In this document: piece after piece, positions 12,066 to 55,820 of the stretch | Position numbering within the stretch: the first letter of the stretch is position 1 | Layout of the letters: each line of letters begins with the position of its first letter | From: Escherichia coli | GTDB taxonomy: Bacteria > Pseudomonadota > Gammaproteobacteria > Enterobacterales > Enterobacteriaceae | Assembly (NCBI RefSeq): GCF_050920415.1 | Contig: NZ_CP169309.1 | Reading direction: 5' to 3' (one strand) | DNA: 64,000 nt | Made by a program: the position numbers and the translations under genes | Notes under the pieces: generated by a model | What the model was told of the DNA's origin: nothing | The model's input: the letters and a program-made list of their open reading frames with translations, nothing else | Database searches by the model: none

Positions 12066-12115
12066 ACCATAAGGTTAGCCTCTTACTCGTTGGAAATCAA
12101 CACAGGAGGCTGGGA

Positions 12116-12302: not shown

Positions 12303-12456
12303 ACGGCGTTGCGCATTCTCATTGCACCCAAATTTATTCTTCACAAAAATAATAATAGATTTTATTACGCGAACGATTATTTATTTCCTGAATAAACAAA
12401 TAAAAAAATCCCCGCCATTTGGCAGGGATCTTAGATTCTGTGCTTTTAAGCAGAGA

Positions 12457-12669
12457 TTACAGGCTGGTTACGTTACCAGCTGCCGGGCCTTTAGCGCCGC
12501 TTTCGATGGTGAAGGACACTTTCTGACCTTCGTCCAGAGATTTGTAACCATCGTTCTGGATAGCAGAGAAGTGTACGAACACGTCTTTAGAACCATCGTC
12601 AGGAGTGATGAAGCCGAAGCCTTTGTCAGCGTTGAACCATTTTACGATACCAGTCATTTTACCGGACAT
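12457..12669 (-). CDS. cspA: major cold-shock protein CspA
   Basis: 70-aa [73 protein letters not shown]; cold-shock domain with RNP motifs. Confidence 0.97.
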
Positions 12670-12828
12670 AGTGTATTACCTTTAATAATTAATTGTGCCT
12701 TTCGGCGATATGGCGTGCTTTACAGATTTTGAAGCGTTAAAGGAAATGCACACTACGAGGGGTATCAACGATAACTCTTGAAGGGACTTGCCTTACTACA
12801 CTGCTTTAATGGTCTGTACGTCAAACCG
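12670..12828 (-). promoter_or_regulatory. long cspA 5' untranslated leader (cold-box containing)
   Basis: About 159 nt between the cspA start codon and a sequence whose reverse complement begins ACGGTTTGACGTACAGACC, matching the known cspA transcript 5' end from memory. Confidence 0.6.
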
Positions 12829-12950
12829 TTGAAGTGCATTAAGCCACGCATTGGTGGGTGATGCAACAATTATTTTTCATATTTATGATTAATCGGTTGG
12901 AAAACGGTCCTGTCATCAGGACCGTAAACAGCAATAAAGTGGATAAAAGT

Positions 12951-24025: not shown

Positions 24026-24102
<77 letters not shown>

Positions 24103-24108
24103 AATTCG

Positions 24109-24137
24109 AAAAGCCTGCTCAGCGAGCAGGCTTTTTT
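24109..24137 (+). terminator. rho-independent terminator after tRNA-Pro
   Basis: AGCCTGCTC-AGCG-AGCAGGCT hairpin followed by TTTTTT. Confidence 0.7.
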
Positions 24138-24152
24138 GCATTTGAAGCCCAT

Positions 24153-24270
24153 GAGGATGAGAACCTCCGGGGGCGGGGAGGTTCGACTCGAGCGAAGCGA
24201 GAGAACGTTGCGCCAGCAACGGCCCGCAGGGCGAGCCACGAAGTGGCGAGTAATCCTCTATCACCGACCA
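24153..24270 (+). repeat. tRNA-Pro 3'-end-containing repeat unit 1 (T-arm start, about 63-nt insert, then the last 19 nt of tRNA-Pro)
   Basis: Begins with GGAGGTTCGA (tRNA T-stem) and ends AATCCTCTATCACCGACCA, identical to the proK 3' end; followed by its own terminator at about 24277..24304. Confidence 0.6.
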
Positions 24271-24276
24271 ATTTAG

Positions 24277-24304
24277 AAAAACCAGCCTACGGGCTGGTTT
24301 TTTG
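24277..24304 (+). terminator. rho-independent terminator after repeat unit 1
   Basis: CCAGCC-TACG-GGCTGG hairpin followed by TTTTTT. Confidence 0.6.
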
Positions 24305-24320
24305 CTTTCTGCGGCCTGAA

Positions 24321-24424
24321 GAGGATGAGAACTTCCGGGGGCAGGGAGGTTCGACTCCAGCAAAGCGAGAGAACGTTGTGGCAGCAACGGCCCGCAGTGG
24401 CGAGTAATCCTCTGGCACCGACCA
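24321..24424 (+). repeat. tRNA-Pro 3'-end-containing repeat unit 2 (diverged copy of unit 1 with a 14-nt deletion)
   Basis: About 85 percent identical to unit 1; ends AATCCTCTGGCACCGACCA (two mismatches to the proK 3' end). Confidence 0.6.
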
Positions 24425-24433
24425 AATCTGAAC

Positions 24434-24519
24434 GTAGGCCTGATAAGACGCGTCAGCGCCGCATCAGGCAACGGCACCGCACTTATTGTCGGATGCGGCG
24501 TGAACGCCTTATCTGACCG
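24434..24519. repeat. REP/BIME element (two inverted REP palindromes)
   Basis: GTAGGCCTGATAAGACGCGTCAGCGCCGCATCAGGCA and CGGATGCGGCGTGAACGCCTTATC: canonical REP consensus. Confidence 0.8.
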
Positions 24520-32385: not shown

Positions 32386-32585
32386 ATTTCACTACCAGTC
32401 TGGAGTCAGCCCGGATATGAACTGCAACTATTGCAAATAAAGAAATTAAGCTGGAAGGCATCACGCAATGAGGAAGATTGCCGGGTGCTGACGGTAAAAA
32501 GCAATCGTAAAATCAGCGGCAAGCCGGAAAGGTTCCGGTGAGGCGCAATGTTGCGGGGGCTTAATCCCTGGTGGCATTGGTTGCT

Positions 32586-32654
32586 GGAGAGAGAAAACCC
32601 CCGCACGTTGCAGATATTCACCTGACAACATCACGGGGGCTAATCTTGAACCTA
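32586..32654 (-). ncRNA. rdlD: Rdl antisense RNA, copy 1 (approximate ends)
   Basis: Minus-strand reading gives a GC-stem hairpin (CCCCCG...CGGGGG) followed by UUUUCUCUC; -10-like TATTCT upstream on minus strand; ends inferred from the Rdl family. Confidence 0.45.
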
Positions 32655-32705
32655 GACCACTCAAGAATAGCCGCGAAACGTTGTCATTACAACACAGGCG
32701 GCTAT

Positions 32706-32813
32706 ATGACGCTCGCAGAACTGGGCATGGCCTTCTGGCATGATTTAGCGGCTCCGGTCATTGCTGGCATTCTTGCCAGTCTGATCGTGAACTGGCTGAA
32801 CAAGCGGAAGTAA
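32706..32813 (+). CDS. ldrD: Ldr type I toxin peptide, copy 1 (35 aa)
   Basis: MTLAELGMAFWHDLAAPVIAGILASLIVNWLNKRK; Ldr family small hydrophobic toxin. Confidence 0.85.
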   Translation: MTLAELGMAFWHDLAAPVIAGILASLIVNWLNKRK

Positions 32814-33071
32814 CGTGTCAGACGGGCGTCAGGCTGCCGTAATGGCAATTTGCGCCCGGACCAGGCCGCAGGGATAAAACTCTGCGGCCTTTTTCGTAAG
32901 AAAAATGCAACGGTTGCAAGCGGATAATATTCTGCGGAATGCGCAGCACAGAGTGAAGAAGTGATGGATTCTGGAACAGAAAAACAGTCGTAGAATCAGC
33001 GGCAAGCCGGAAGGGTTCCGGTGAGGCGCAATGTTGCGGGGGCTTTATCCCTGGTGGCATTGGTTGCTGGA

Positions 33072-33140
33072 GAGAGAAAACCCCCGCACGTTGCAGGTAT
33101 GCACCTGACAACATCACGGGGGCCATTCTTGCATCCAAAC
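33072..33140 (-). ncRNA. rdlD: Rdl antisense RNA, copy 2 (approximate ends)
   Basis: Same structure as copy 1; minus-strand promoter-like TTGTAA, 17-bp spacer, TATTCT. Confidence 0.45.
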
Positions 33141-33188
33141 AATACAAGAATAGCCGCGAAACGTTGTCATTACAACAGAGGCGGCTAT

Positions 33189-33296
33189 ATGACGCTCGCA
33201 GAACTGGGCATGGCCTTCTGGCATGATTTAGCGGCTCCGGTCATTGCTGGCATTCTTGCCAGTCTGATCGTGAACTGGCTGAACAAGCGGAAGTAA
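33189..33296 (+). CDS. ldrD: Ldr type I toxin peptide, copy 2 (35 aa)
   Basis: MTLAELGMAFWHDLAAPVIAGILASLIVNWLNKRK. Confidence 0.85.
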   Translation: MTLAELGMAFWHDLAAPVIAGILASLIVNWLNKRK

Positions 33297-33555
33297 CGTG
33301 TCAGACGGGCGTCAGGCTGCCGTAATGGCAATTTGCGCCCGGACCAGGCCGCAGGGATAAAACTCTGCGGCCTTTTTCGTAAGAAAAATGCAACGGTTGC
33401 AAGCGGATAATATTCTGCGGAATGCGCAGCACAGAGTGAAGAAGTGATGGATTTCGACGAACAAAAATGGCCGTAGAATCAGCGGCAAGCCGGAAGGGTT
33501 CCGGTGAGGCGCAATGTTGCGGGGGGCTTTATCCCTGGTGGCATTGGTTGCTGGA

Positions 33556-33624
33556 GAGAGAAAACCCCCGCACGTTGCAGGTATGCACCTGACAACACCA
33601 CGGGGGCCATTCTTGCATCTAGAC
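33556..33624 (-). ncRNA. rdlD: Rdl antisense RNA, copy 3 (approximate ends)
   Basis: Same structure as copies 1-2. Confidence 0.45.
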
Positions 33625-33672
33625 CATTCAAGAATAGCCGCGAAACGTTGTCATTACAACAGAGGCGGCTAT

Positions 33673-33780
33673 ATGACGCTCGCAGAGCTGGGCATGGCCT
33701 TCTGGCATGATTTAGCGGCTCCGGTCATTGCTGGCATTCTTGCCAGCATGATCGTGAACTGGCTGAACAAGCGGAAGTAA
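33673..33780 (+). CDS. ldrD: Ldr type I toxin peptide, copy 3 (35 aa)
   Basis: MTLAELGMAFWHDLAAPVIAGILASMIVNWLNKRK (L26M relative to copies 1-2). Confidence 0.85.
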   Translation: MTLAELGMAFWHDLAAPVIAGILASMIVNWLNKRK

Positions 33781-34038
33781 CGTGTCAGACGGGCGTCAGG
33801 CTGCCGTAATGGCAATTTGCGCCCGGATCAGGCCGCAGGGATAAAACTCTGCGGCCTTTTTCGTAAGAAAAATGCAACGGTTGCAAGCGGATAATATTCT
33901 GCGGAATGCGCAGCACAGAGTGAAGAAGTGACGGATTCCGGAACAGAAAAACAGTCGTAGAATTAGCGGCAAGCCGGAAGGGTTCCGGTGAGGCGCAATG
34001 TTGCGGGGGCTTTATCCCTGGTGGCATTGGTTGCTGGA

Positions 34039-34107
34039 GAGAGAAAACCCCCGCACGTTGCAGGTATGCACCTGACAACATCACGGGGGCTAATCTTGAA
34101 CCCAAAC
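34039..34107 (-). ncRNA. rdlD: Rdl antisense RNA, copy 4 (approximate ends)
   Basis: Same structure as copies 1-3. Confidence 0.45.
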
Positions 34108-34155
34108 AACTCAAGAATAGCCGCGAAACGTTGTCATTACAACAGAGGCGGCTAT

Positions 34156-34263
34156 ATGACGCTCGCAGAACTGGGCATGGCCTTCTGGCATGATTTAGCG
34201 GCTCCGGTCATTGCTGGCATTCTTGCCAGTCTGATCGTGAACTCGCTGAATAAGTGGAAGTAA
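34156..34263 (+). CDS. ldrD: Ldr type I toxin peptide, copy 4 (35 aa, variant C-terminus)
   Basis: MTLAELGMAFWHDLAAPVIAGILASLIVNSLNKWK (W30S and R34W relative to copies 1-2). Confidence 0.8.
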   Translation: MTLAELGMAFWHDLAAPVIAGILASLIVNSLNKWK

Positions 34264-34349
34264 CGTGTCATGCGGGCGTCAGGCTGCCGTAATGGCAATT
34301 TGCGCCCGGATCAGGCCGCAGGGGTGAAACTCTGCGGCCTTTTTCGTTC

Positions 34350-36029
34350 TTATTGCGGGTAAGGCACCCAGTCGCCGCCGTTCAGGCGAACGTACGGTTT
34401 ATCCTGGTATTGAATAACTACTGCATTTGAGTTCTCGGAGACCGGTGCTGTTTGTGGCAACCCACTGGTGAGTTTTTTCCAGTCAACATTGTCTTCGGTG
34501 AAAATCTTACCATCAAGAACGCGAACCACCAGATCGGAGATAGCCAGGAAGCTGCTCGGTTGGTTGATGACAATCGGTGCCCCCTGATGTGGTGCCTTCA
34601 TGCCGAAGAATTTCACCCCAACGGGGACGTCTGTGATAGACGGGCTAGGGATATCACGTAGGCCAGATACCTGCATTCTGTCGCCCTTCAGCGCGCCACC
34701 GTGTTCCGGCACCACTACCACCATCACTTTACGACCCGATTTCTCCAGTTCAGTAAAGAAGGCGTCCAGCTCATCAAAGAATTTCTGCGCTCGCGCTTTG
34801 TAATCCGCTGTTTTGCTGACGCCCGGATAATGGTTGCCGTCATGCAGTGGAAGCGTGTTGTAGAACGTGGCACTACGGCTGTTTTTATCTTTTTCGGTAA
34901 CGTCCAGCCAGCGGTTAAGCACGGCGGTATCGTCATAAACCGGCGAACCATCAAAGCCCAACAAAATAACCGGCAGATTTGTTTGATCCATCAATTCGGT
35001 CTGCATGCCGCCATTTTCGCGAACTTCTTTCAAAAAACCGCCGAACTGGCCGTTATGTCCCATCATCAGGTGCTGGGTAAAGCCCAGTTTCGACAGGTTA
35101 TCAAACAGATAGCAGTCGTTATTTGCCGGTTGATACAGATTAGTGTGCGAAGTCTGCCCGCAGCTGGCGCGCAGTAAACGGATCGCCGCCGGGCCACTGT
35201 AGGAGGTGGCGGAGTTAAAGTTCTTGAACTCAATATCGAAATGCGACCACAGCGGATGCGACATCAACCCGGCGGCTTCAATATCCGACCAGGAAAGCGA
35301 ACAGATATTAATCACCAGTAGTTCAAATGGCTGAGCATCAGCGGGCAGCGAAGACGGGAAGGTCGATTTACGTTTCGCCTCCGCGTTATAGAAATTATTC
35401 AGCCAGGCGTTAAGGTTCGCCGTTGTTGGCGGTGCAGTTTGTGCGGGCATATCACCCACTACCGGTGCGCCACCCGTCGCCGCAACGGTTGCCGCTGCGT
35501 TACCACCCGTCGTTGTTACAGTGGTCGTCGGTTGACCGGCAGGCCACAAGGAGAAACTTGGTCCCGCCAGGGTAAGTACGTTCAGCCATAGCAGAATGGC
35601 AACCACAAAAACGGTAATGCGAATCCATTGTGACAGGAATAACCAGGCCACTAATAAAACAAAAATGGCCCCAATCATCTGCCAGTTAATAAAGCGTGTG
35701 ACAAGGTCGATTAAATAATCGGTACTGAACCCCGCCACCTGCGAACCCTGGCTCATTATGCTTTCCGGGCCAGGCAACCAGGTGTCATGCCAGAACAAAG
35801 CAAAGCCGATCGGCAGGGCAATCCAGTGGCGTAAGCGATGCAGGCTGTAGCGCGGAATGGGCATCAGCAGAAACGCGGCAAACACCAGATTGAGGAGCGG
35901 ATGGAAGTTAAGATATCCCGCCCACAACAGGCCGAACTTAACCAGAAAATAGAAGTTCCAGCCGGAAAGGCCGCGCCAGTATTGCCAGAGGGAAGAAGGC
36001 ATGGCGGTATTTTGCGTAAATTGAGTCAT
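34350..36029 (-). CDS. bcsG: cellulose biosynthesis protein BcsG (phosphoethanolamine transferase)
   Basis: 559-aa ORF, N-terminal TM segments plus periplasmic alkaline-phosphatase-like domain; head of the bcsEFG operon. Confidence 0.9.
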
Positions 36030-36217
36030 TTTTTGGTTGCCCTGGCTTTTTCCGTGCGGCGTAACGTCCCGGCCGGTTTAACATAACGAGGTTTAGCAAA
36101 GAACAAACGTAAGGTGTCGCGAATGCGTCGCAAAGAGTGCCGCGCCAGATAGCCCAGCGGGAAAAATATCAGTGCGCAAACGACAATAATTTCAATGATA
36201 TCGCTGATGGTCATCAT
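36026..36217 (-). CDS. bcsF: cellulose biosynthesis protein BcsF
   Basis: 63-aa single-TM ORF ([26 protein letters not shown]) between bcsE and bcsG with 4-bp overlaps. Confidence 0.8.
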
Positions 36218-37785
36218 GATGAGCGCTCCACAGCATCATCTAACAGTCGCATTGGTTCTGGTATTCTTCGCCAGTGGCGACCATCGTGCTCGGCATTGAT
36301 GACCGGTTTAGAACTTTGCGTTAAAGGCAGCGGCATGCCCCATTGTTCTGGGGCAAGCAGGCGCATCTGCACCAGCTCGGCACTGATTTGATCATCTTCA
36401 AACCAGACCATACGGTTTGAGAAAATGTCGCCAGTCGGCAATGGGAAAATATGATTCAACGCGGTATCCAGATCGTTAATCCGACAGAATGAGAGAAACA
36501 GCACCAGCCGATTACCGCCAATGGTCATGATATCGCCGGTACGGTTAGGGCGACACAGCGTCAGGGCTTGCTCAACGCGGATACCCGGTACCGGACGTAG
36601 GGCAACCAGAACGCCTTTACCATGTGCAGGCAAGAGAGGGTTATTCATCATGTTGTTAACGGCATTACAGAACACATCCCACTTCTGGAAACCACGCAGT
36701 TTGAGCGGCTGGGTCATTGACAGCAAGGTAGTGATATCTTCCGGCACATAGCGACTAAACTTCTGCCCTTGCACGCTTTCGATCATCGTCAGACAGCGGG
36801 AGAGTGGCGCATTCCACGGGATAACCATATTTGCACCGCAGGCCAATAATAAACGTTCATCGGTGGCGCGCAGGCTTGCAGTATTTTCCCGTACGAGGAT
36901 TTTCATCGCACTACCGCGCTGGCGACGCAGAGTATGAATGCTGCGGGCCAGTGGCTCGATTTGCGCATTTTGCTGTAAAGAAAAGACCACCGTCGCCGCC
37001 TGAGCTGTACGGGCTTCATTGAACAGAACTTCGTTATTGTTGAACAGTTGCCAGTGTTCCGATAGGGGCGGTGCACCTTCCAGTACAGCAACATTACTCA
37101 GAATGCGTTTTTCGTCGCTGCGTGGTTGGATCTCCGCCTCTTCGCTTTGAACTAATGTCCAGATACCATTTTGTTGCTGAACGCTAAGCTGCTGACGGGC
37201 GCTGACCCCTTTTTCGTTGCACCAGAAGGCAATATCCAGCAAATGTTGGTCGCCCTGAAAACGCAAACTGGCAAGACCAAAAAGTGAACGGTATTCCTCA
37301 AGCAACAATGAAAATTGTTTATCGTTATTATTTCCGGGATTAATTACCAAAAGCGAACAATGGTTTAACCTGCTCCATTTATTCATTTTATCCAACCATG
37401 AGCGAAGCCGCTCGGCAGGAATGTTTTGCCATGCGTTATTTGCGCAAACAAGAATAAAAAGGTAATTATTGGGATCAATAGAACACTGCAAATCACGGGC
37501 CAAATAGTATAGACCTTTTTCATGATTTAGCATTGAAAATAATTTTATTTTTTCCGGCCCTTGAGAATCATCTAATTGAAAGATTTTCGCCGGATCGCTG
37601 TCCATGCTAATGACCGCGACGTGTGCGGTTTCAGCCTGGGATGCAATTGTTTGATTCGCCAGACTGATAGCATCTTCATGGCGATCGACGTTAAACCACC
37701 AGACGCCGCCTGCTGGCATATGTCGCAGCTCATCCCATAATGATGAGATACCGATAGAGAATACAGGGTCCACAATGTCCCTCAT
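36214..37785 (-). CDS. bcsE: cellulose biosynthesis c-di-GMP-binding protein BcsE
   Basis: 523-aa ORF; position and size match bcsE. Confidence 0.88.
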
Positions 37786-38056
37786 GTCATCATTTTGTCT
37801 GATTATCAGTTTACTAGCGAAAGCTAAGAAATAAACCTACCATTGAAATTAAAACTTATCAGATTTAGCATGTGAATCAATTTAGCAGGTCACAAGACGT
37901 GTGATTTTAGTCTTTTCGTTTTTAACTTTTTTTGTTGCGTAACGGAAAGTCAAAAAGTGAGCAAATTCCCGTCTCGCCGTAAACAATAAACCGGCGAAAT
38001 GCTCACGGTTAGAATTGTCTCATGAACGGTGCGGTTATTTCATAGGGATCAAGCAA

Positions 38057-38245
38057 ATGAATAACAATGAACCAGATACTCTGCCTGATCCCGCGATAGG
38101 CTATATCTTCCAGAATGATATTTTGGCGTTAAAGCAGGCATTTTCACTGCCTGATATTGATTATGCCGATATTTCCCAACGCGAACAGTTGGCCGCGGCA
38201 TTAAAACGCTGGCCGTTGCTGGCAGAGTTTGCGCAACAAAAGTAG
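38057..38245 (+). CDS. bcsR: cellulose biosynthesis protein BcsR
   Basis: ORF 38015..38245; start chosen at MNNNEPDTLPDPAIGYIFQ (62 aa). Confidence 0.8.
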   Translation: MNNNEPDTLPDPAIGYIFQNDILALKQAFSLPDIDYADISQREQLAAALKRWPLLAEFAQQK

Positions 38246-38256
38246 GGGATTGGTGA

Positions 38257-39009
38257 ATGGCCGTACTGGGATTGCAGGGGGTGCGGGGAGGCGTGGGGAC
38301 AACAACCATCACTGCCGCATTAGCCTGGTCATTACAAATGTTGGGAGAAAATGTCCTGGTGGTCGATGCCTGCCCGGACAATTTGTTGCGCCTGTCATTT
38401 AACGTTGATTTTACCCACCGTCAGGGCTGGGCCAGAGCCATGCTGGACGGTCAGGACTGGCGTGACGCCGGGTTGCGCTATACCTCGCAGCTCGATTTGC
38501 TGCCTTTTGGTCAGTTATCCATTGAAGAACAAGAAAATCCTCAGCACTGGCAAACCCGGTTGAGCGATATTTGCTCCGGCTTACAGCAACTCAAAGCTAG
38601 CGGGCGTTACCAGTGGATTTTGATCGACTTACCGCGTGATGCCTCACAGATAACCCACCAGTTGCTGAGTTTGTGCGATCACTCGCTGGCAATCGTCAAT
38701 GTGGATGCCAACTGCCATATCCGGCTGCATCAGCAGGCGCTGCCGGATGGCGCGCATATTTTGATTAATGACTTCCGTATCGGCAGTCAGGTTCAGGACG
38801 ATATTTACCAGCTTTGGTTGCAAAGCCAGCGCCGATTACTGCCAATGCTCATTCATCGTGATGAAGCGATGGCTCAATGCCTGGCGGCTAAGCAACCAGT
38901 CGGTGAATACCGCAGTGATGCGCTGGCGGCTGAAGAGATACTGACGCTGGCTAACTGGTGCCTGTTGAACTATTCCGGGCTGAAAACGCCAGTCGGGAGT
39001 GCATCATGA
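38257..39009 (+). CDS. bcsQ: cellulose synthase operon protein BcsQ (ParA/MinD-like ATPase), intact
   Basis: 250-aa uninterrupted ORF starting MAVLGLQGVRGGVGTTTITAALAWSLQ; codon 6 is TTG (Leu). Confidence 0.9.
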   Translation: MAVLGLQGVRGGVGTTTITAALAWSLQMLGENVLVVDACPDNLLRLSFNVDFTHRQGWARAMLDGQDWRDAGLRYTSQLDLLPFGQLSIEEQENPQHWQTRLSDICSGLQQLKASGRYQWILIDLPRDASQITHQLLSLCDHSLAIVNVDANCHIRLHQQALPDGAHILINDFRIGSQVQDDIYQLWLQSQRRLLPMLIHRDEAMAQCLAAKQPVGEYRSDALAAEEILTLANWCLLNYSGLKTPVGSAS

Positions 39010-41624
39010 GTATCCTGACCCGGTGGTTGCTTATCCCGCCGGTCAACGCGCGGCTTATCGGGCGTTATCGCGATTATCGTCGTCACGGCGCGTCGGCTTT
39101 CAGCGCGACGCTCGGCTGTTTTTGGTTGATCCTGGCCTGGATTTTTATTCCGCTGGAGCACCCGCGCTGGCAGCGTATTCGCGCAGAACATAAAAACCTG
39201 TATCCGCATATCAACGCCTCGCGTCCGCGTCCGCTGGACCCGGTCCGTTATCTCATTCAAACATGCTGGTTACTGATCGGTACATCGCGCAAAGAAACGC
39301 CGAAACCGCGCAGGCGGGCAATTTCAGGTCTGCAGAATATTCGTGGCCGTTACCATCAATGGATGGACGAGTTGCCTGAGCGCGTTAGCCATAAAACACA
39401 GCATCTTGATGAGAAAAAAGAACTCGGTCATTTGAGCGCCGGGGCGCGGCGGTTGATCCTCGGTATCATCGTCACCTTCTCACTGATTTTGGCATTAATC
39501 TGCGTTACCCAGCCGTTTAACCCGCTGGCGCAGTTTATCTTCCTGATGCTGCTGTGGGGTGTAGCACTGATCGTACGACGAATGCCGGGACGCTTCTCGG
39601 CGCTGATGTTGATTGTGCTGTCGCTGACTGTTTCTTGCCGTTATATCTGGTGGCGCTACACCTCTACGCTGAACTGGGACGATCCGGTAAGTCTGGTGTG
39701 CGGGCTTATACTGCTGTTCGCTGAAACGTACGCGTGGATTGTGCTGGTGCTCGGCTACTTCCAGGTGGTATGGCCGCTGAATCGTCAGCCGGTGCCATTG
39801 CCGAAAGATATGTCGCTGTGGCCGTCGGTGGATATCTTTGTCCCGACTTACAACGAAGATCTCAACGTGGTGAAAAATACGATTTACGCCTCGCTGGGTA
39901 TCGACTGGCCGAAAGACAAGCTGAACATCTGGATCCTAGATGACGGCGGCAGGGAAGAGTTTCGCCAGTTTGCACAAAACGTGGGGGTGAAATATATCGC
40001 CCGTACCACTCATGAACATGCGAAAGCAGGCAACATCAACAATGCGCTGAAATATGCCAAAGGCGAGTTCGTGTCGATTTTCGACTGCGACCACGTACCA
40101 ACGCGATCGTTCCTGCAAATGACCATGGGCTGGTTCCTGAAAGAAAAACAGTTGGCGATGATGCAGACGCCGCACCACTTCTTCTCACCGGACCCGTTTG
40201 AACGCAACCTCGGGCGTTTTCGTAAAACGCCAAACGAAGGCACGCTGTTTTATGGTCTGGTGCAGGACGGCAATGATATGTGGGATGCCACTTTCTTCTG
40301 CGGTTCCTGTGCGGTGATTCGCCGTAAGCCGCTGGATGAGATTGGCGGTATTGCCGTCGAAACGGTAACCGAAGATGCGCATACTTCTCTGCGTCTGCAC
40401 CGTCGTGGCTACACTTCAGCGTATATGCGTATTCCACAGGCGGCGGGGCTGGCGACCGAAAGTCTGTCGGCGCATATCGGCCAACGTATTCGCTGGGCGC
40501 GTGGGATGGTGCAAATCTTCCGTCTTGATAACCCGCTCACCGGAAAAGGACTGAAGTTTGCTCAGCGGCTGTGCTACGTCAACGCCATGTTCCATTTCTT
40601 GTCGGGCATTCCACGACTGATCTTTCTGACTGCGCCGCTGGCGTTCCTGCTGCTGCATGCCTACATCATCTACGCGCCAGCGTTAATGATTGCTCTGTTT
40701 GTGCTGCCGCATATGATTCACGCCAGCCTGACCAACTCGAAGATTCAGGGTAAATATCGCCACTCTTTCTGGAGCGAAATCTACGAAACGGTACTGGCGT
40801 GGTATATCGCACCACCGACGCTGGTGGCGCTGATTAACCCGCACAAAGGCAAATTTAACGTCACCGCCAAAGGTGGACTGGTGGAAGAAGAGTACGTCGA
40901 CTGGGTGATCTCACGGCCCTACATTTTCCTGGTATTGCTCAACCTGGTCGGTATTGCGGTCGGTATCTGGCGTTACTTCTACGGCCCGCCAACCGAGATG
41001 CTCACTGTCATCGTCAGTATGGTGTGGGTGTTCTACAACCTGATTATTCTCGGTGGTGCGGTAGCGGTATCGGTAGAAAGCAAACAGGTTCGCCGATCGC
41101 ACCGCGTGGAGATGACGATGCCCGCGGCAATTGCCCGCGAAGATGGTCACCTCTTCTCGTGTACCGTTCAGGATTTCTCCGACGGTGGTTTGGGGATCAA
41201 GATCAACGGTCAGGCACAGATTCTGGAAGGGCAGAAAGTGAATCTGTTGCTTAAACGCGGTCAGCAAGAATACGTCTTCCCGGCCCAGGTGGCGCGCGTG
41301 ATGGGTAATGAAGTTGGGCTGAAATTAATGCCGCTCACCACCCAGCAACATATCGATTTTGTGCAGTGTACGTTTGCCCGTGCGGATACATGGGCGCTCT
41401 GGCAGGACAGCTATCCGGAAGATAAGCCGCTGGAAAGTCTGCTGGATATTCTGAAGCTCGGCTTCCGTGGCTACCGCCATCTGGCGGAGTTTGCGCCTTC
41501 TTCGGTGAAGGGCATATTCCGTGTGCTGACTTCTCTGGTTTCCTGGGTTGTATCGTTTATTCCGCGCCGCCCGGAGCGGAGCGAAACGGCACAACCATCG
41601 GATCAGGCTTTGGCTCAACAATGA
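39006..41624 (+). CDS. bcsA: cellulose synthase catalytic subunit BcsA
   Basis: ORF 38958..41624; start at MSILTRWLLIPPVN (872 aa); GT2 motifs (QTPHHF, QRIRWARG) and C-terminal PilZ domain. Confidence 0.93.
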   Translation: MSILTRWLLIPPVNARLIGRYRDYRRHGASAFSATLGCFWLILAWIFIPLEHPRWQRIRAEHKNLYPHINASRPRPLDPVRYLIQTCWLLIGTSRKETPKPRRRAISGLQNIRGRYHQWMDELPERVSHKTQHLDEKKELGHLSAGARRLILGIIVTFSLILALICVTQPFNPLAQFIFLMLLWGVALIVRRMPGRFSALMLIVLSLTVSCRYIWWRYTSTLNWDDPVSLVCGLILLFAETYAWIVLVLGYFQVVWPLNRQPVPLPKDMSLWPSVDIFVPTYNEDLNVVKNTIYASLGIDWPKDKLNIWILDDGGREEFRQFAQNVGVKYIARTTHEHAKAGNINNALKYAKGEFVSIFDCDHVPTRSFLQMTMGWFLKEKQLAMMQTPHHFFSPDPFERNLGRFRKTPNEGTLFYGLVQDGNDMWDATFFCGSCAVIRRKPLDEIGGIAVETVTEDAHTSLRLHRRGYTSAYMRIPQAAGLATESLSAHIGQRIRWARGMVQIFRLDNPLTGKGLKFAQRLCYVNAMFHFLSGIPRLIFLTAPLAFLLLHAYIIYAPALMIALFVLPHMIHASLTNSKIQGKYRHSFWSEIYETVLAWYIAPPTLVALINPHKGKFNVTAKGGLVEEEYVDWVISRPYIFLVLLNLVGIAVGIWRYFYGPPTEMLTVIVSMVWVFYNLIILGGAVAVSVESKQVRRSHRVEMTMPAAIAREDGHLFSCTVQDFSDGGLGIKINGQAQILEGQKVNLLLKRGQQEYVFPAQVARVMGNEVGLKLMPLTTQQHIDFVQCTFARADTWALWQDSYPEDKPLESLLDILKLGFRGYRHLAEFAPSSVKGIFRVLTSLVSWVVSFIPRRPERSETAQPSDQALAQQ

Positions 41625-41634
41625 TGATAACGCG

Positions 41635-43974
41635 ATGAAAAGAAAACTATTCTGGATTTGTGCAGTGGCTATGGGGATGAGTGCGTTCCCCTCTTTCATG
41701 ACGCAGGCGACGCCAGCAACGCAACCACTGATCAATGCTGAGCCAGCTGTAGCCGCCCAGACGGAACAAAATCCGCAGGTGGGGCAAGTGATGCCGGGCG
41801 TGCAGGGCGCTGATGCCCCCATCGTGGCGCAGAACGGTCCTTCGCGTGATGTGAAGCTGACCTTTGCGCAAATTGCGCCACCGCCGGGCAGCATGGTGCT
41901 ACGTGGCATTAACCCGAACGGCAGCATTGAGTTTGGTATGCGCAGCGATGAAGTGGTGACGAAGGCGATGCTCAACCTCGAATACACGCCATCGCCATCG
42001 TTACTGCCTGTCCAGTCGCAGTTAAAGGTTTATCTCAATGATGAACTGATGGGCGTGCTGCCAGTGACCAAAGAACAGTTGGGTAAAAAAACGCTGGCAC
42101 AAATGCCAATTAACCCACTGTTTATTACCGACTTCAACCGTGTGCGGCTGGAGTTTGTCGGTCATTATCAGGACGTGTGCGAAAACCCGGCCAGCACCAC
42201 GCTTTGGCTGGATGTTGGGCGGAGCAGTGGACTGGATCTGACCTATCAGACCCTGAATGTGAAGAATGATCTGTCACACTTCCCGGTACCATTCTTTGAC
42301 CCGCGTGATAACCGCACCAACACCTTGCCGATGGTCTTTGCGGGTGCGCCGGATGTTGGGCTGCAACAAGCATCTGCCATTGTCGCCTCGTGGTTTGGTT
42401 CGCGTTCTGGCTGGCGTGGGCAGAACTTCCCGGTGCTCTATAACCAACTGCCGGATCGCAATGCCATCGTTTTTGCCACTAATGACAAACGCCCGGACTT
42501 CCTGCGCGATCATCCGGCGGTAAAAGCCCCGGTGATTGAGATGATCAACCATCCACAGAATCCTTACGTCAAACTGCTGGTGGTCTTTGGTCGTGACGAC
42601 AAAGACCTGTTGCAGGCAGCGAAAGGTATCGCTCAGGGTAACATTCTGTTCCGTGGTGAAAGCGTGGTAGTGAATGAAGTGAAACCGCTGCTACCGCGTA
42701 AGCCGTACGATGCGCCGAACTGGGTGCGTACCGATCGTCCGGTCACCTTTGGTGAACTGAAAACCTATGAAGAACAGTTACAATCCAGCGGTCTTGAGCC
42801 AGCAGCGATTAACGTTTCGCTAAACCTGCCGCCGGATCTCTACCTGATGCGCAGTACCGGCATTGATATGGATATCAACTATCGCTACACCATGCCGCCG
42901 GTGAAAGACAGTTCGCGGATGGATATCAGCCTGAATAACCAGTTCCTGCAATCCTTCAACCTGAGCAGTAAACAGGAGGCGAACCGCCTGCTGCTGCGTA
43001 TTCCGGTATTACAAGGTTTGCTGGATGGCAAAACGGATGTCTCTATTCCGGCGCTGAAACTGGGCGCGACCAACCAGTTGCGGTTCGACTTTGAGTATAT
43101 GAACCCGATGCCGGGCGGTTCGGTGGATAACTGTATTACCTTCCAGCCGGTGCAGAATCATGTGGTGATTGGTGACGACTCCACCATCGACTTCTCGAAG
43201 TATTACCACTTCATCCCGATGCCGGATCTACGCGCCTTTGCTAACGCGGGCTTCCCGTTCAGCCGGATGGCGGATCTGTCACAAACCATCACCGTGATGC
43301 CGAAAGCGCCTAACGAAGCACAGATGGAAACCTTGCTGAATACCGTTGGCTTTATCGGTGCGCAGACGGGCTTCCCGGCGATTAACCTGACGGTGACCGA
43401 TGATGGCAGCACCATTCAGGGCAAAGATGCCGACATCATGATTATCGGTGGTATCCCGGACAAACTGAAAGACGACAAGCAGATCGACCTGTTGGTGCAG
43501 GCGACCGAAAGCTGGGTGAAAACGCCGATGCGCCAGACCCCGTTCCCCGGCATTGTGCCGGACGAGAGCGATCGCGCGGCAGAAACTCAATCAACGCTGA
43601 CCTCTTCCGGTGCGATGGCAGCGGTGATTGGCTTCCAGTCGCCGTATAACGACCAGCGTAGCGTGATTGCGCTGCTGGCAGATAGCCCACGCGGTTATGA
43701 AATGCTTAACGATGCGGTGAACGATAGCGGCAAACGCGCCACCATGTTCGGCTCGGTCGCGGTGATCCGCGAGTCCGGTATCAATAGCCTGCGTGTTGGC
43801 GACGTCTATTACGTTGGCCATCTGCCGTGGTTCGAACGCTTATGGTATGCGCTGGCAAACCATCCGATTCTGCTGGCGGTGCTGGCGGCAATCAGCGTCG
43901 TGCTGCTGGCCTGGGTACTGTGGCGTTTGCTGCGTATTATCAGCCGTCGTCGTCTTAACCCGGATAACGAGTAA
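41635..43974 (+). CDS. bcsB: cellulose synthase regulatory subunit BcsB
   Basis: ORF 41548..43974; start at MKRKLFWICAVAMGMSAFPSF (signal peptide), 779 aa. Confidence 0.9.
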   Translation: MKRKLFWICAVAMGMSAFPSFMTQATPATQPLINAEPAVAAQTEQNPQVGQVMPGVQGADAPIVAQNGPSRDVKLTFAQIAPPPGSMVLRGINPNGSIEFGMRSDEVVTKAMLNLEYTPSPSLLPVQSQLKVYLNDELMGVLPVTKEQLGKKTLAQMPINPLFITDFNRVRLEFVGHYQDVCENPASTTLWLDVGRSSGLDLTYQTLNVKNDLSHFPVPFFDPRDNRTNTLPMVFAGAPDVGLQQASAIVASWFGSRSGWRGQNFPVLYNQLPDRNAIVFATNDKRPDFLRDHPAVKAPVIEMINHPQNPYVKLLVVFGRDDKDLLQAAKGIAQGNILFRGESVVVNEVKPLLPRKPYDAPNWVRTDRPVTFGELKTYEEQLQSSGLEPAAINVSLNLPPDLYLMRSTGIDMDINYRYTMPPVKDSSRMDISLNNQFLQSFNLSSKQEANRLLLRIPVLQGLLDGKTDVSIPALKLGATNQLRFDFEYMNPMPGGSVDNCITFQPVQNHVVIGDDSTIDFSKYYHFIPMPDLRAFANAGFPFSRMADLSQTITVMPKAPNEAQMETLLNTVGFIGAQTGFPAINLTVTDDGSTIQGKDADIMIIGGIPDKLKDDKQIDLLVQATESWVKTPMRQTPFPGIVPDESDRAAETQSTLTSSGAMAAVIGFQSPYNDQRSVIALLADSPRGYEMLNDAVNDSGKRATMFGSVAVIRESGINSLRVGDVYYVGHLPWFERLWYALANHPILLAVLAAISVVLLAWVLWRLLRIISRRRLNPDNE

Positions 43975-45087
43975 TTGAAGATGAATGTGTTGCGTAGTGG
44001 ACTCGTGACGATGCTGCTGCTGGCTGCCTTTAGTGTTCAGGCTGCCTGCAACTGGCCTGCCTGGGAGCAGTTCAAAAAGGATTACATCAGTCAGGAAGGG
44101 CGCGTCATCGACCCCAGCGACGCGCGCAAAATCACCACCTCCGAAGGGCAAAGTTACGGCATGTTCTTTGCCCTGGCGGCTAACGACCGTGCAGCTTTCG
44201 ATAATATTCTCGACTGGACGCAGAACAATCTCGCTCAGGGTTCTTTAAAAGAACATTTGCCCGCCTGGCTGTGGGGCAAGAAAGAGAACAGTAAGTGGGA
44301 AGTGCTGGACAGCAATTCGGCCTCTGATGGTGATGTCTGGATGGCCTGGTCGTTGCTGGAGGCGGGGCGTTTGTGGAAAGAGCAGCGTTATACCGACATC
44401 GGCAGCGCGTTGTTAAAACGTATTGCGCGGGAGGAAGTGGTGACGGTGCCTGGGCTGGGTTCCATGTTGTTGCCGGGCAAAGTGGGATTTGCAGAGGATA
44501 ACAGCTGGCGTTTTAACCCCAGCTACCTGCCGCCGACGCTGGCGCAGTATTTCACCCGCTTTGGCGCGCCGTGGACTACGCTGCGCGAAACCAATCAACG
44601 TTTATTGCTGGAAACCGCCCCGAAAGGCTTTTCGCCAGACTGGGTGCGCTATGAGAAAGACAAAGGCTGGCAGCTAAAAGCCGAAAAAACATTGATCAGC
44701 AGCTACGACGCTATCCGTGTTTACATGTGGGTAGGCATGATGCCTGACAGCGATCCGCAAAAAGCGCGGATGCTCAACCGGTTTAAACCGATGGCGACAT
44801 TCACCGAGAAAAACGGCTATCCGCCGGAAAAAGTCGATGTGGCTACGGGGAAAGCGCAGGGTAAAGGACCGGTCGGTTTTTCTGCCGCCATGCTGCCCTT
44901 TTTACAAAACCGCGATGCACAGGCCGTTCAGCGCCAGCGCGTGGCCGATAACTTTCCCGGCAGCGATGCCTATTACAACTATGTGCTGACCCTGTTTGGA
45001 CAAGGCTGGGATCAACACCGTTTCCGCTTCTCGACAAAAGGTGAGTTATTACCTGACTGGGGCCAGGAATGCGCAAATTCACACTAA
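43975..45087 (+). CDS. bcsZ: endo-1,4-beta-glucanase BcsZ (GH8)
   Basis: 370-aa ORF with signal peptide; GH8-family cellulase; start may be the second Met. Confidence 0.9.
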
Positions 45088-48000
45088 ACATATTCACGCT
45101 TTCCCTCGGTCTGGCCGTCATGCCGATGGTCGAGGCAGCACCAACCGCTCAGCAACAGTTGCTGGAGCAAGTTCGGTTAGGCGAAGCGACCCATCGTGAA
45201 GATCTGGTGCAACAGTCGTTGTATCGGCTGGAACTTATTGATCCGAATAACCCGGACGTCGTTGCCGCCCGTTTCCGTTCTCTGTTACGTCAGGGCGATA
45301 TTGATGGCGCGCAAAAACAGCTCGATCGGCTGTCGCAGTTAGCGCCGAGTTCAAATGCGTATAAATCGTCGCGGACCACAATGTTACTTTCTACGCCGGA
45401 TGGTCGTCAGGCACTGCAACAGGCAAGATTGCAGGCGACTACCGGTCATGCAGAAGAAGCTGTGGCGAGTTACAACAAGCTGTTCAACGGTGCGCCGCCG
45501 GAAGGTGACATTGCCGTCGAGTACTGGAGTACGGTGGCGAAAATTCCGGCTCGCCGTGGCGAAGCGATTAATCAGCTAAAACGCATCAATGCGGATACGC
45601 CGGGCAATACGGGCCTGCAAAACAATCTGGCGCTATTGCTGTTTAGTAGCGATCGGCGTGATGAAGGTTTTGCTGTACTGGAGCAGATGGCGAAATCGAA
45701 CGCCGGGCGCGAGGGAGCCTCTAAAATCTGGTACGGGCAGATTAAAGACATGCCTGTCAGCGATGCCAGCGTGCAGGCGCTGAAAAAATATCTCTCTATC
45801 TTTAGTGATGGCGACAGCGTAGCTGCTGCGCAATCGCAACTGGCAGAACAGCAAAAACAGCTGGCCGACCCTGCTTTCCGCGCTCGTGCGCAAGGTTTAG
45901 CGGCAGTGGACTCTGGCATGGCGGGTAAAGCCATTCCCGAACTACAACAGGCAGTGCGGGCGAACCCGAAAGACAGTGAGGCACTGGGGGCGCTGGGCCA
46001 GGCGTATTCTCAGAAAGGCGATCGCGCCAATGCGGTGGCGAATCTGGAAAAAGCCCTCGCACTGGACCCGCACAGCAGCAACAACGACAAATGGAACAGT
46101 CTGCTGAAAGTAAACCGCTACTGGCTGGCGATCCAGCAGGGTGATGCCGCGCTGAAAGCCAATAATCCTGACCGGGCAGAACGCCTGTTCCAGCAGGCGC
46201 GCAGTGTCGATAACACCGACAGCTATGCGGTGTTGGGGCTGGGCGATGTGGCGATGGCGCGAAAAGATTATTCCGCCGCCGAACGCTATTACCAGCAGAC
46301 GCTGCGCATGGACAGCGGCAATACCAACGCCGTGCGCGGGCTAGCGAATATTTACCGCCAGCAATCGCCAGAAAAAGCCGAAGCGTTTATCGCCTCGCTC
46401 TCTGCCAGCCAGCGGCGCAGCATTGATGATATCGAACGTAGCCTGCAAAACGATCGTCTGGCACAGCAGGCAGAGGCACTGGAAAAACAGGGCAAATGGG
46501 CGCAGGCAGCAGCACTTCAGCGGCAACGACTGGCACTGGACCCCGGCAGTGTATGGATTACTTACCGACTTTCGCAGGATCTCTGGCAGGCCGGACAACG
46601 CAGCCAGGCCGATACGTTAATGCGCAATCTCGTGCAGCAGAAGCCGAACGACCCGGAGCAGGTTTACGCTTACGGGCTGTACCTTTCAGGTCACGACCAG
46701 GACAGAGCGGCACTGGCGCATATCAACAGCCTGCCGCGTGCCCAGTGGAACAGCAATATTCAGGAGCTGGTTAATCGGCTGCAAAGCGACCAGGTGCTGG
46801 AAACCGCTAATCGCCTGCGAGAAAACGGTAAAGAGGCAGAAGCAGCAGCGATGCTGCGCCAGCAACCGCCTTCCTCGCGTATTGATCTGACGCTGGCTGA
46901 CTGGGCGCAACAACGACGTGATTACGCTGCTGCCCGTGCTGCATATCAGAATGTCCTGACGCGGGAGCCAACTAACGCTGATGCCATTCTTGGCCTGACG
47001 GAAGTGGATATCGCTGCCGGTGACAAAGCGGCGGCACGTAGCCAACTGGCGAAACTGCCTGCCTCCGATAACGCCTCCCTGAACACACAGCGGCGCGTGG
47101 CGCTGGCGCAGGCGCAGCTTGGCGATACCGCAGCGGCGCAGCAGACGTTTAACAAGCTGATCCCGCAGGCAAAATCTCAGCCACCGTCGATGGAAAGCGC
47201 GATGGTACTGCGCGACGGTGCGAAGTTTGAAGCACAGGCGGGCGATCCAACGCAGGCGCTGGAAACCTACAAAGACGCGATGGTTGCATCCGGTGTGACC
47301 ACGACGCGTCCGCAGGATAACGACACCTTTACCCGGCTGACTCGTAACGACGAGAAAGATGACTGGCTGAAACGCGGCGTGCGCAGCGATGCGGCAGATC
47401 TCTACCGCCAGCAGGATCTTAACGTCACCCTCGAGCACGATTACTGGGGGTCGAGCGGCACCGGTGGTTACTCCGATCTGAAAGCGCACACTACCATGTT
47501 GCAGGTGGATGCGCCGTATTCTGACGGGCGGATGTTCTTTCGCAGTGATTTCGTCAATATGAACGTCGGCAGTTTCTCCACTAATGCCGATGGCAAATGG
47601 GATGACAACTGGGGCACCTGTACATTACAGGACTGTAGCGGCAACCGCAGCCAGTCGGATTCCGGTGCCAGCGTGGCGGTCGGCTGGCGAAATGACGTCT
47701 GGAGCTGGGATATCGGCACCACGCCGATGGGCTTCAACGTGGTGGATGTGGTCGGCGGCATCAGTTACAGCGATGATATCGGGCCGCTGGGTTACACAGT
47801 TAACGCCCATCGTCGGCCCATCTCCAGTTCTTTGCTGGCCTTTGGCGGGCAAAAAGACTCCCCAGGCAATACCGGGAAAAAATGGGGCGGCGTGCGTGCC
47901 GACGGCGTGGGGCTAAGCCTGAGCTACGATAAAGGTGAAGCAAACGGCGTCTGGGCATCGCTTAGCGGCGACCAGTTAACCGGTAAAAATGTTGAAGATA

Positions 48001-48542
48001 ACTGGCGCGTGCGCTGGATGACGGGCTATTACTATAAGGTCATCAACCAGAACAATCGCCGCGTGACAATCGGCCTGAACAACATGATCTGGCATTACGA
48101 CAAAGATCTGAGTGGGTACTCACTCGGTCAGGGCGGTTACTACAGCCCGCAGGAATACCTGTCGTTTGCCATTCCGGTGATGTGGCGTGAGCGGACAGAA
48201 AACTGGTCGTGGGAGCTGGGGGCGTCTGGTTCGTGGTCGCATTCGCGCACCAAAACCATGCCGCGGTATCCGCTGATGAATCTGATCCCGACTGACTGGC
48301 AGGAAGAAGCTGCGCGGCAATCCAACGATGGCGGCAGCAGTCAGGGCTTTGGCTATACGGCGCGGGCATTACTTGAGCGTCGCGTCACATCCAACTGGTT
48401 TGTCGGTACGGCAATTGATATCCAGCAGGCGAAAGATTACGCGCCCAGCCATTTCCTGCTCTACGTACGTTATTCCGCCGCCGGATGGCAGGGTGACATG
48501 GATTTACCGCCGCAGCCGCTGATACCTTACGCCGACTGGTAA
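45069..48542 (+). CDS. bcsC: cellulose synthase outer-membrane/TPR subunit BcsC
   Basis: 1157-aa ORF, TPR-rich N-terminal region and C-terminal beta-barrel-like region. Confidence 0.93.
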
Positions 48543-48623: not shown

Positions 48624-50612
48624 TTGCGCGTAAGTCGCTCGTTAACAATCAAGCAGATGGCAATGGTGGCAGCCGTTGTCCTGGTGTTCGTTTTTATTTT
48701 TTGCACCGTTTTGCTGTTCCATCTGGTCCAGCAGAATCGCTATAACACGGCTACGCAACTGGAAAGCATTGCTCGCTCTGTCCGCGAACCCTTATCTTCT
48801 GCCATTTTGAAAGGCGATATTCCCGAAGCGGAAGCTATTCTTGCCAGCATTAAACCGGCAGGCGTGGTCAGCCGTGCCGATGTGGTGCTGCCTAACCAGT
48901 TCCAGGCGCTGCGTAAAAGTTTTATTCCAGAGCGTCCGGTGCCGGTAATGGTTACTCGCATGTTTGAGCTACCGGTGCAAATCTCGCTGGGCGTTTACTC
49001 GCTGGAACGTCCGGCAAACCCGCAGCCAATTGCCTATCTGGTGCTACAGGCGGATTCCTTCCGCATGTATAAGTTCGTGATGAGCACCCTCTCAACGTTA
49101 GTGACCATTTACTTACTTTTGTCGTTAATATTGACGGTGGCGATTAGCTGGTGCATTAACCGCCTGATTTTGCATCCGTTACGCAATATTGCTCGTGAAC
49201 TTAACGCCATCCCAGCCCAGGAGCTTGTTGGTCACCAACTGGCATTACCACGTCTGCATCAGGACGATGAAATCGGTATGCTGGTGCGCAGTTACAACCT
49301 CAACCAGCAATTGCTGCAGCGCCATTATGAAGAACAGAACGAAAATGCGATGCGCTTCCCGGTGTCGGATTTGCCGAACAAAGCCTTGCTGATGGAGATG
49401 CTGGAGCAGGTTGTCGCGCGTAAACAAACCACCGCGCTGATGATTATCACCTGTGAAACCCTGCGTGATACTGCGGGCGTGCTGAAAGAGGCGCAACGAG
49501 AAATTCTGCTGCTGACGCTGGTGGAAAAACTCAAATCGGTACTGTCGCCACGTATGATCCTCGCGCAGATTAGTGGTTATGACTTTGCTGTCATTGCCAA
49601 CGGTGTACAGGAGCCGTGGCATGCTATTACTTTAGGTCAGCAAGTGCTCACTATCATGAGCGAGTGCCTGCCGATTGAACGTATTCAACTCCGTCCGCAC
49701 TGTAGCATTGGCGTGGCGATGTTCTACGGCGATCTCACCGCCGAACAGCTTTACAGTCGCGCTATTTCTGCGGCATTTACCGCTCGCCATAAAGGTAAGA
49801 ATCAGATTCAGTTCTTTGATCCGCAGCAGATGGAAGCCGCCCAACAGCGGTTGACGGAAGAGAGCGATATCCTTAATGCACTGGAAAATCATCAGTTTGC
49901 GATTTGGTTACAGCCACAGGTCGAGATGACCAGCGGTAAACTGGTCAGTGCGGAAGTGTTACTGCGTATCCAGCAACCGGATGGCAGTTGGGATCTGCCG
50001 GATGGCTTAATCGATCGCATTGAGTGCTGTGGGCTGATGGTTACCGTCGGTCACTGGGTGCTGGAAGAGTCCTGCCGACTGCTTGCTGCCTGGCAAGAGC
50101 GCGGCATTATGCTGCCCTTGTCGGTAAACCTCTCGGCGCTGCAACTGATGCACCCGAATATGGTGGCGGATATGCTGGAGCTGTTAACCCGCTATCGCAT
50201 TCAGCCGGGAACGCTGATTCTGGAAGTGACAGAAAGCCGACGTATTGACGACCCTCATGCAGCGGTGGCAATCCTCCGCCCGTTGCGTAATGCCGGCGTT
50301 CGGGTGGCGCTGGATGATTTCGGCATGGGCTACGCAGGGCTGCGTCAGCTGCAGCATATGAAATCGTTGCCAATCGACGTGTTAAAAATCGACAAAATGT
50401 TTGTTGAAGGCTTGCCGGAAGATAGCAGCATGATTGCTGCAATTATCATGTTGGCGCAAAGCCTGAACTTACAAATGATTGCCGAAGGCGTGGAGACTGA
50501 AGCACAACGCGACTGGCTGGCAAAAGCGGGCGTTGGTATTGCCCAGGGCTTCCTTTTTGCTCGCCCACTCCCTATTGAAATCTTCGAAGAGAGTTACCTG
50601 GGAGAAAAGTAG
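48624..50612 (+). CDS. pdeK: c-di-GMP phosphodiesterase PdeK (HAMP-GGDEF-EAL)
   Basis: 662-aa ORF with TTG start per the ORF track (alternative in-frame ATG 33 nt downstream); N-terminal TM segments, degenerate GGDEF and C-terminal EAL domain. Confidence 0.82.
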
Positions 50613-55052: not shown

Positions 55053-55820
55053 ATGATAAGGCAGGTTATCCAGCGAATAAGCAACCCTGAAGCAAGCATC
55101 GAGAGCTTGCAGGAACGGCGTTTTTGGTTGCAGTGTGAGCGTGCTTACACCTGGCAGCCGATCTATCAAACCTGCGGACGGTTAATGGCCGTGGAGCTAT
55201 TAACGGTGGTCACGCATCCCTCGAACCCTTTACAACGTCTGCCGCCGGATCGCTATTTTACTGAAATCACCGTCAGCCATCGGATGGAGGTTGTGAAAGA
55301 GCAGATTGATTTGCTGGCGCAAAATGCCGACTTCTTTGTCGAGCACGGCCTGCTGGCATCGGTCAATATTGATGGTCCTACGCTCATCGCCCTGCGTCAG
55401 CAACCAAAAATCCTGCGCCAGATTGAGCATCTTCCCTGGCTGCGTTTCGAACTGGTAGAACACATCCGCCTGCCAAAAGACTCAACCTTTGCCTCGATGT
55501 GTGAATTTGGTCCGCTGTGGCTGGATGATTTCGGCACTGGGATGGCGAATTTCTCTGCGCTAAGTGAAGTACGTTACGACTACATCAAAATCGCCCGTGA
55601 GCTGTTTGTGATGCTGCGTCAGTCACCGGAAGGACGCACGCTCTTTTCTCAGCTTTTACATCTCATGAATCGCTATTGTCGCGGGGTGATTGTCGAAGGT
55701 GTGGAAACGCAGGAAGAGTGGCGCGATGTACAAAATTCGCCTGCATTTGCTGCACAAGGCTGGTTTCTTTCACGCCCGGCACCGATAGAAACGCTGAATT
55801 CGGCAGTTCTGGCGCTATAA
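55053..55820 (+). CDS. pdeH: c-di-GMP phosphodiesterase PdeH (EAL domain)
   Basis: ORF 55008..55820; start chosen at MIRQVIQRISNPEASIESLQ (255 aa); EAL domain protein. Confidence 0.9.
   Translation: MIRQVIQRISNPEASIESLQERRFWLQCERAYTWQPIYQTCGRLMAVELLTVVTHPSNPLQRLPPDRYFTEITVSHRMEVVKEQIDLLAQNADFFVEHGLLASVNIDGPTLIALRQQPKILRQIEHLPWLRFELVEHIRLPKDSTFASMCEFGPLWLDDFGTGMANFSALSEVRYDYIKIARELFVMLRQSPEGRTLFSQLLHLMNRYCRGVIVEGVETQEEWRDVQNSPAFAAQGWFLSRPAPIETLNSAVLAL

Follow-up and report, generated by a model that had tools for sequence, protein, structure and literature searches.

Cellulose secretion systems of the E. coli type (type II Bcs), whose defining subunits are BcsE and BcsG (PMC11470070), have been described in strains such as E. 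coli 1094, UTI89 and AR3110, and both the structure and the mechanism of the intact bcsRQABZC/bcsEFG locus are already known and extensively published. In the mechanism established for the family (PMC7840130, PMC11470070, PMC11379886, PMC7397504), c-di-GMP would be made by DgcC under the control of CsgD, and the dimeric form of this messenger would bind the PilZ domain of BcsA and open its active site. Polymerisation of UDP-glucose by BcsA would then proceed across the membrane into the periplasmic crown formed by BcsB. Secretion would require an essential BcsR2Q2 ATPase complex, held on the synthase by BcsE, which would act as a second c-di-GMP sensor brought to the membrane by BcsF. A BcsG trimer docked on the N-terminal domain of BcsA would move phosphoethanolamine (pEtN) from phosphatidylethanolamine to the nascent glucan, passing through a Ser278-linked intermediate. 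Finally, the polymer would be trimmed by BcsZ and exported across the outer membrane by BcsC.

In certain lineages, among them ST95, ST11, ST1193 and Shigella, bcs genes often carry loss-of-function lesions, and cellulose-negative genotypes (K-12, many ST95, ST11, Shigella and others) have been tied to enhanced virulence (PMC10881479). In the case of K-12, a TAG codon in bcsQ has a polar or null effect that renders the lineage cellulose-negative (PMC7397504), and the mutation, bcsQ 17T>A, has been placed on the branch of the K-12 common ancestor (PMC5944007). Changing codon 6 of strain W3110 from TAG to TTG produced the cellulose-proficient strain AR3110, which also proves that the other eight bcs genes of K-12 are functional (PMC7397504).

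The locus described here lies in a stretch of E. coli chromosomal DNA of 64 kb, the whole of which is referred to as the window. Its nine genes, divergent two-operon layout, gene lengths and junctions are those of the type II systems of E. coli 1094, UTI89 and AR3110, from which it differs by allelic polymorphism only. The polar, secretion-abolishing bcsQ lesion of K-12 is absent from it, and the region can therefore be regarded, with a probability of about 0.9, as a complete wild-type locus of type II with full coding capacity for pEtN cellulose.

Layout and integrity of the bcs locus

The gene order of the window is xylHGF-xylAB ... glyQS, hokA/sok, cspA, ... bisC, tag, eptB, tRNA-Pro, dppABCDF and yhjV, followed by four ldr/rdl modules, bcsGFE on the minus strand, bcsRQABZC on the plus strand, pdeK, dctA, yhjJ, kdgK, pdeH, yhjG ... 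treF. The features that concern cellulose are as follows.

34350-36029, minus strand: bcsG, cellulose phosphoethanolamine transferase, 559 aa (TIGR03368, 818.3 bits against a cut-off of 410)
36026-36217, minus strand: bcsF, 63-aa membrane peptide recruiting BcsE (TIGR03493, 116.4 bits)
36214-37785, minus strand: bcsE, secondary c-di-GMP sensor (NF011619 equivalog, 1188.8 bits, positions 1-523 of 523)
37786-38056, no strand: divergent bcsE/bcsR intergenic control region, 271 nt
38057-38245, plus strand: bcsR (yhjR), 62-aa partner of BcsQ (NF040717, 75.8 bits against a cut-off of 46)
38257-39009, plus strand: bcsQ, SIMIBI-type ATPase essential for cellulose secretion, 753 nt, 250 codons (250 aa)
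39006-41624, plus strand: bcsA, c-di-GMP-activated catalytic subunit of cellulose synthase, 872 aa (NF008558 equivalog, 1792.5 bits against a cut-off of 992, positions 1-872 of 872)
41635-43974, plus strand: bcsB, periplasmic co-polymerase (crown subunit), 779 aa (NF008325 equivalog, 1386.8 bits)
43981-45087, plus strand: bcsZ, periplasmic GH8 endoglucanase, 368 aa (NF008305 equivalog, 595.9 bits)
45069-48542, plus strand: bcsC, TPR and outer-membrane porin subunit, 1157 aa (NF008520 equivalog, 2195.2 bits against a cut-off of 858, positions 1-1157 of 1157)
48624-50612, plus strand: pdeK (annotated as hmsP), c-di-GMP phosphodiesterase, 662 aa, intact, adjoining bcsC
55053-55817: pdeH, c-di-GMP phosphodiesterase gene, intact

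All nine bcs genes, bcsQ included, have the length of their MG1655 counterparts and a single terminal stop each, in agreement with a first-pass annotation of the same DNA, which had called them full length. A frameshift overlooked somewhere in the locus had been named there as one observation that would overturn this view, and neither the open reading frames nor the comparison with MG1655 revealed a frameshift or a nonsense codon in the nine genes of either operon. An unbroken alignment with K-12 of 22.3 kb spans the locus; it contains 6 gap openings, and since all the bcs gene lengths equal those of K-12, not one of these falls inside a bcs gene. Each of the nine proteins scores far above the curated cut-off of its NCBIfam model (equivalog models, plus the BcsR model), and the matches run from end to end except for N-terminal residues of BcsR, BcsG and BcsB.

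Downstream of bcsA, the genes bcsB, bcsZ and bcsC follow contiguously on the plus strand (41635-48542), while intact bcsR and bcsQ precede it; together with the presence of bcsF, of BcsE with its RxxD I-site and of BcsG, this is the arrangement of a type II system. The first-pass annotation had also described the junctions as typically overlapping, which is true of four of the seven (bcsQ/A, bcsE/F and bcsF/G through ATGA, and bcsZ/C by 19 nt), whereas the remaining three show gaps of 11 nt (bcsR-Q), 10 nt (bcsA-B) and 6 nt (bcsB-Z). In both operons the arrangement of junctions is that of K-12.

BcsA is a GT2 synthase with the D,D,D,QxxRW signature and a C-terminal PilZ domain (RxxxR...DxSxxG), its motifs being present as DCD at 360, FFCGS at 430, TED at 455, QRIRW at 493 and, in the PilZ domain, RRSHR at 696 and DFSDGG at 723. 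None of its eight substitutions relative to K-12, all of them conservative, falls in these motifs; those of the N-terminal domain are M41L, A93T, F106I and N121D. BcsR carries one substitution (V23L), its exact protein being present on at least 1000 public contigs, BcsB carries seven and BcsC fifteen, whereas the nucleotide sequence of bcsF is that of K-12. BcsZ has Glu at position 55 and Asp at position 243, which we take to be functional residues. BcsG, where E489N is found relative to K-12, keeps Ser278, C243, H396, E442 and H443, the last four likewise taken to be functional. Ser278 of BcsG is the nucleophile of pEtN transfer (PMC11379886, PMC11470070). Both I-sites of BcsE, R415TGD and R306ATD, are present, and their roles have been described (PMC7840130). 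Overall, among the catalytic and ligand-binding residues checked, no substitution was found at a published functional position of the Bcs proteins. [quoted passage not shown]

None of the changes that define a cellulose-negative genotype (frameshift, nonsense mutation, deletion or IS insertion in any bcs gene; PMC10881479) occurs in the locus. In contrast to the lineages where such lesions have been reported, it lacks the BcsA frameshift at residue 186 of ST95, BcsA W55*, BcsQ Q178* and the BcsG frameshift at 418 (PMC10881479, PMC5944007), and its nine full-length frames likewise set it apart from the bcsE nonsense mutation of ATCC 8739 and the bcs deletion of HS (PMC10881479, PMC5944007). The practical value of the result is only that of a genotype call, which places the strain outside the cellulose-negative genotypes.

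Compared with K-12, the control region between the divergent bcsE and bcsR genes shows 4 substitutions and, in the A-run that directly precedes the ATG of bcsR, a 1-nt indel. This last change (38050-38059) reads caagcaaATG in the window and caagcaaaATG in K-12, and changes by one base the distance from the Shine-Dalgarno sequence to the bcsR start. A consensus scan for promoters and terminators in this intergenic region and at the 3′ end of bcsC found sites no more often than in shuffled controls.

The open bcsQ allele and its distribution

The bcsQ frame starts with ATG, ends with TGA and contains no internal stop, as seen from the open reading frame and its translation, and the protein matches the NCBIfam equivalog NF007460 over its full length (positions 1-250 of 250), scoring 540.8 bits where the cut-off is 399. 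Its 5′ end reads ATG GCC GTA CTG GGA TTG CAG, so that codon 6 is TTG (Leu), whereas the same stretch of MG1655 reads ATG GCC GTA CTG GGA TAG CAG, with TAG at codon 6; the MG1655 gene (b3534) is annotated in RefSeq as a pseudogene. In the alignment of both genes, this base of codon 6 is the sole difference within the first 45 nt, and the 57-mer around codon 6 in the K-12 pseudogene allele lies one base away from that of the window, with an identical operon structure. The K-12-type null allele (TAG at codon 6, 17T>A) is therefore absent, and bcsQ, closed by a stop codon in K-12, is open here. These data uphold what the first-pass annotation had stated about the gene, namely that bcsQ is intact, as shown by its 250 codons, one terminal stop and full-length NF007460 match, and that codon 6, as can be read directly in the window, encodes leucine. 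The stop that it named for K-12 is indeed there, as shown by the TAG codon of MG1655, the pseudogene status of b3534 and two published accounts (PMC7397504, PMC5944007). The alignment of the bcsQ 5′ end with K-12, a check named beforehand, gave precisely the expected single-base difference at codon 6.

The frequency of both alleles was obtained from complete E. coli genomes. The TTG version of a 57-mer centred on codon 6 occurs exactly in 3,552 of 5,426, and the TAG version in 349 of the same 5,426, while the remaining genomes, with neither exact 57-mer, differ at other places within it. Among the 60 genomes listed of those 349, laboratory strains predominate overwhelmingly by name or source (MG1655, DH5alpha, DH1, C600, J53, HMS174). 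TTG at bcsQ codon 6 is thus the wild type, the ancestral and majority state of E. coli, and TAG is a trait peculiar to the laboratory lineage of K-12; with 3,552 genomes for one version and 349 for the other, an open bcsQ is the norm of the species and not a feature of this strain. A common nonsense mutation of BcsQ has also been reported in STs 167, 617 and 744 of the ST10 complex (PMC10881479). This mutation could be the same as the K-12 TAG allele, and the "laboratory" allele may perhaps be carried by natural isolates as well.

The BcsQ protein shares about 99% identity with the E. coli BcsQ whose crystal structure is known (6YBU/6YAR), which derives from E. coli 1094. The differences from the construct of that strain are D172, Q207 and A249 in the window as opposed to N172, E207 and K249 in the crystal. 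Residues R10, T16, T17, C39, D150, N152, R156 and N171, whose roles have been described (PMC7840130), are present, and all those of the ATP sandwich (T16, T17, N152, R156 and N171) are kept. The E207Q substitution holds relative to K-12 as well as to the crystallised protein of strain 1094. A search of the structural paper for residue 207 found no mention of a functional role for E207 (PMC7840130), and the exact protein with Q207 occurs on 559 public contigs.

From coding capacity to phenotype

The Bcs proteins of the window differ from those of K-12 by 0-15 mostly conservative substitutions each, 42 in total. The dN/dS values relative to K-12 are 0.011 for bcsQ, 0.022 for bcsA, 0.031 for bcsB, 0.063 for bcsZ, 0.032 for bcsC, 0.025 for bcsE and 0.053 for bcsG, a divergence that is almost entirely synonymous and bears the signature of purifying selection. 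Moreover, all nine proteins occur with exactly the same sequence on public contigs, 69 to at least 1000 for each of them, which indicates that they are standing natural alleles rather than private mutations. With bcsQ open, no interruption of the cellulose pathway is apparent in the window, and the intact genes suggest that the Bcs system would be expressed, assembled and able to produce its polymer, pEtN-modified cellulose, in response to c-di-GMP.

In any case, what an intact bcs locus predicts is the capacity for cellulose and not the phenotype. Cellulose production needs CsgD, DgcC and RpoS, whose genes lie outside the window, and the phenotype is therefore set in part elsewhere; csgD, dgcC, rpoS and mlrA are all located beyond the 64 kb. 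It is accordingly possible, though a minority expectation, that the locus is intact and yet silent, the strain being cellulose-negative under standard conditions through lesions in csgD, rpoS, mlrA or dgcC, or through a high activity of PdeH or PdeK. Such a situation has precedents in BL21 and H10407, calcofluor-negative in spite of their complete bcs loci (PMC5944007), and it would fit with the specific requirement for DgcC, with CsgD acting upstream of it (PMC7397504). Likewise, pdeK and pdeH, the two phosphodiesterase genes that the window contains, are both intact. PdeK, which interacts with cellulose synthase and with DgcC (PMC7397504), is encoded by a gene of the same length as that of K-12, with a dN/dS of 0.045 and the same annotation in the near-identical genome of strain N96. 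The very low dN/dS of all nine bcs genes argues in the opposite direction, since it points to a system that has been used and selected in the lineage.

A cryptic inactivation, in which one of the 42 substitutions would leave every protein full length and yet destroy the assembly or the activity of the system, appears very unlikely. Its candidates would be E207Q in BcsQ, M41L, A93T, F106I and N121D in BcsA, and E489N in BcsG, and the BcsA cluster deserves some attention because the N-terminal domain, where its four substitutions lie, is the docking site of BcsG (PMC11470070). However, this domain is weakly conserved in primary structure (PMC11470070), no substitution affects a residue reported as functional, the recurrence of every exact allele on public contigs speaks against a defect, and dN/dS values of 0.01-0.06 argue for continued constraint. 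A milder effect, by which the alleles of this lineage (BcsQ E207Q, the four substitutions in the BcsA N-terminal domain and the change in the bcsR A-run) would tune either the response threshold for c-di-GMP or how far the polymer is modified with pEtN, is highly improbable too. Finally, TTG could have arisen by secondary reversion in a K-12-derived background, or be an artefact of sequencing or assembly in such a background, an idea with a negligible chance of being right that was rejected on the basis of the 3% divergence from K-12. Over the 22.3 kb aligned with MG1655, identity reaches only 97.0%, and the window has four ldr/rdl copies at the site of the single one of K-12. Its identity to N96, a natural isolate whose BcsQ protein is the same and is annotated as intact, amounts to 99.1-99.5%. 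The complete wild-type locus thus remains the preferred reading, and biofilm formation of the rdar or pEtN-cellulose kind would be plausible for the strain, provided that its regulators are intact.

Mosaic divergence and neighbouring elements

The similarity to N96 (NZ_CM169999.1), an isolate from a Tibetan pig, is collinear over all 64 kb, and this is also the closest complete genome, with 99.3% identity over 25 kb, as compared with about 97.6-97.9% for most genomes. No genome identical to the window was found among the complete RefSeq E. coli genomes, which points to a source strain whose lineage has been sampled sparsely, or whose genome is a mosaic here. Differences from N96 are unevenly spread, with 49 in the 4 kb of the bcsQ-bcsA tract (38001-42000) and 0-3 per 2 kb at 32-38 kb and 42-50 kb. 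Similarly, dS relative to K-12 ranges from 0.135 to 0.19 for bcsQ, bcsA, bcsB and bcsC, and from 0.058 to 0.074 for bcsE, bcsG and bcsZ. Strain MFDS1022581 is 100% identical to the window over a 1.3-kb bcsR-bcsQ segment only. This mosaic pattern of divergence is consistent with recombination tracts that would cross the bcs locus. The BcsQ, BcsA and bcsR alleles considered above as candidates for tuning sit in or beside the bcsQ-bcsA tract, which looks recombinant with respect to the closest genome.

Other variable elements were observed in the window. Between yhjV and bcsG, a tandem array of four type I toxin-antitoxin modules (32497-34347), each with an Ldr toxin and its Rdl antisense RNA, shows a period of 483 nt and copies about 95% alike.

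32706-32813, 33189-33296, 33673-33780 and 34156-34263, plus strand: ldr open reading frames
32592-32657, 33075-33140, 33559-33624 and 34042-34107, minus strand: rdl RNAs

At this site K-12 has one copy (ldrD/rdlD), N96 four and MFDS1022581 five, which indicates that the number of ldr copies varies among strains. Further upstream, the region 24026-24518 contains the tRNA-Pro gene (proK) and, after it, two RtT repeats and an naRNA4 (REP-type) element. About 43 extra nt are found here relative to N96 (24427-24469), and the repeat region downstream of proK is thus variable as well. Two RNA elements lie closer to the start of the window.

11967-12118: sok antisense RNA, adjoining hokA
12402-12830, minus strand: thermoregulator in the 5′-UTR of cspA (Rfam match, 493 bits)

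The adjacent cold-shock gene bears the PGAP name "cspE" in N96, a name that was discarded, given that this Rfam match indicates cspA.
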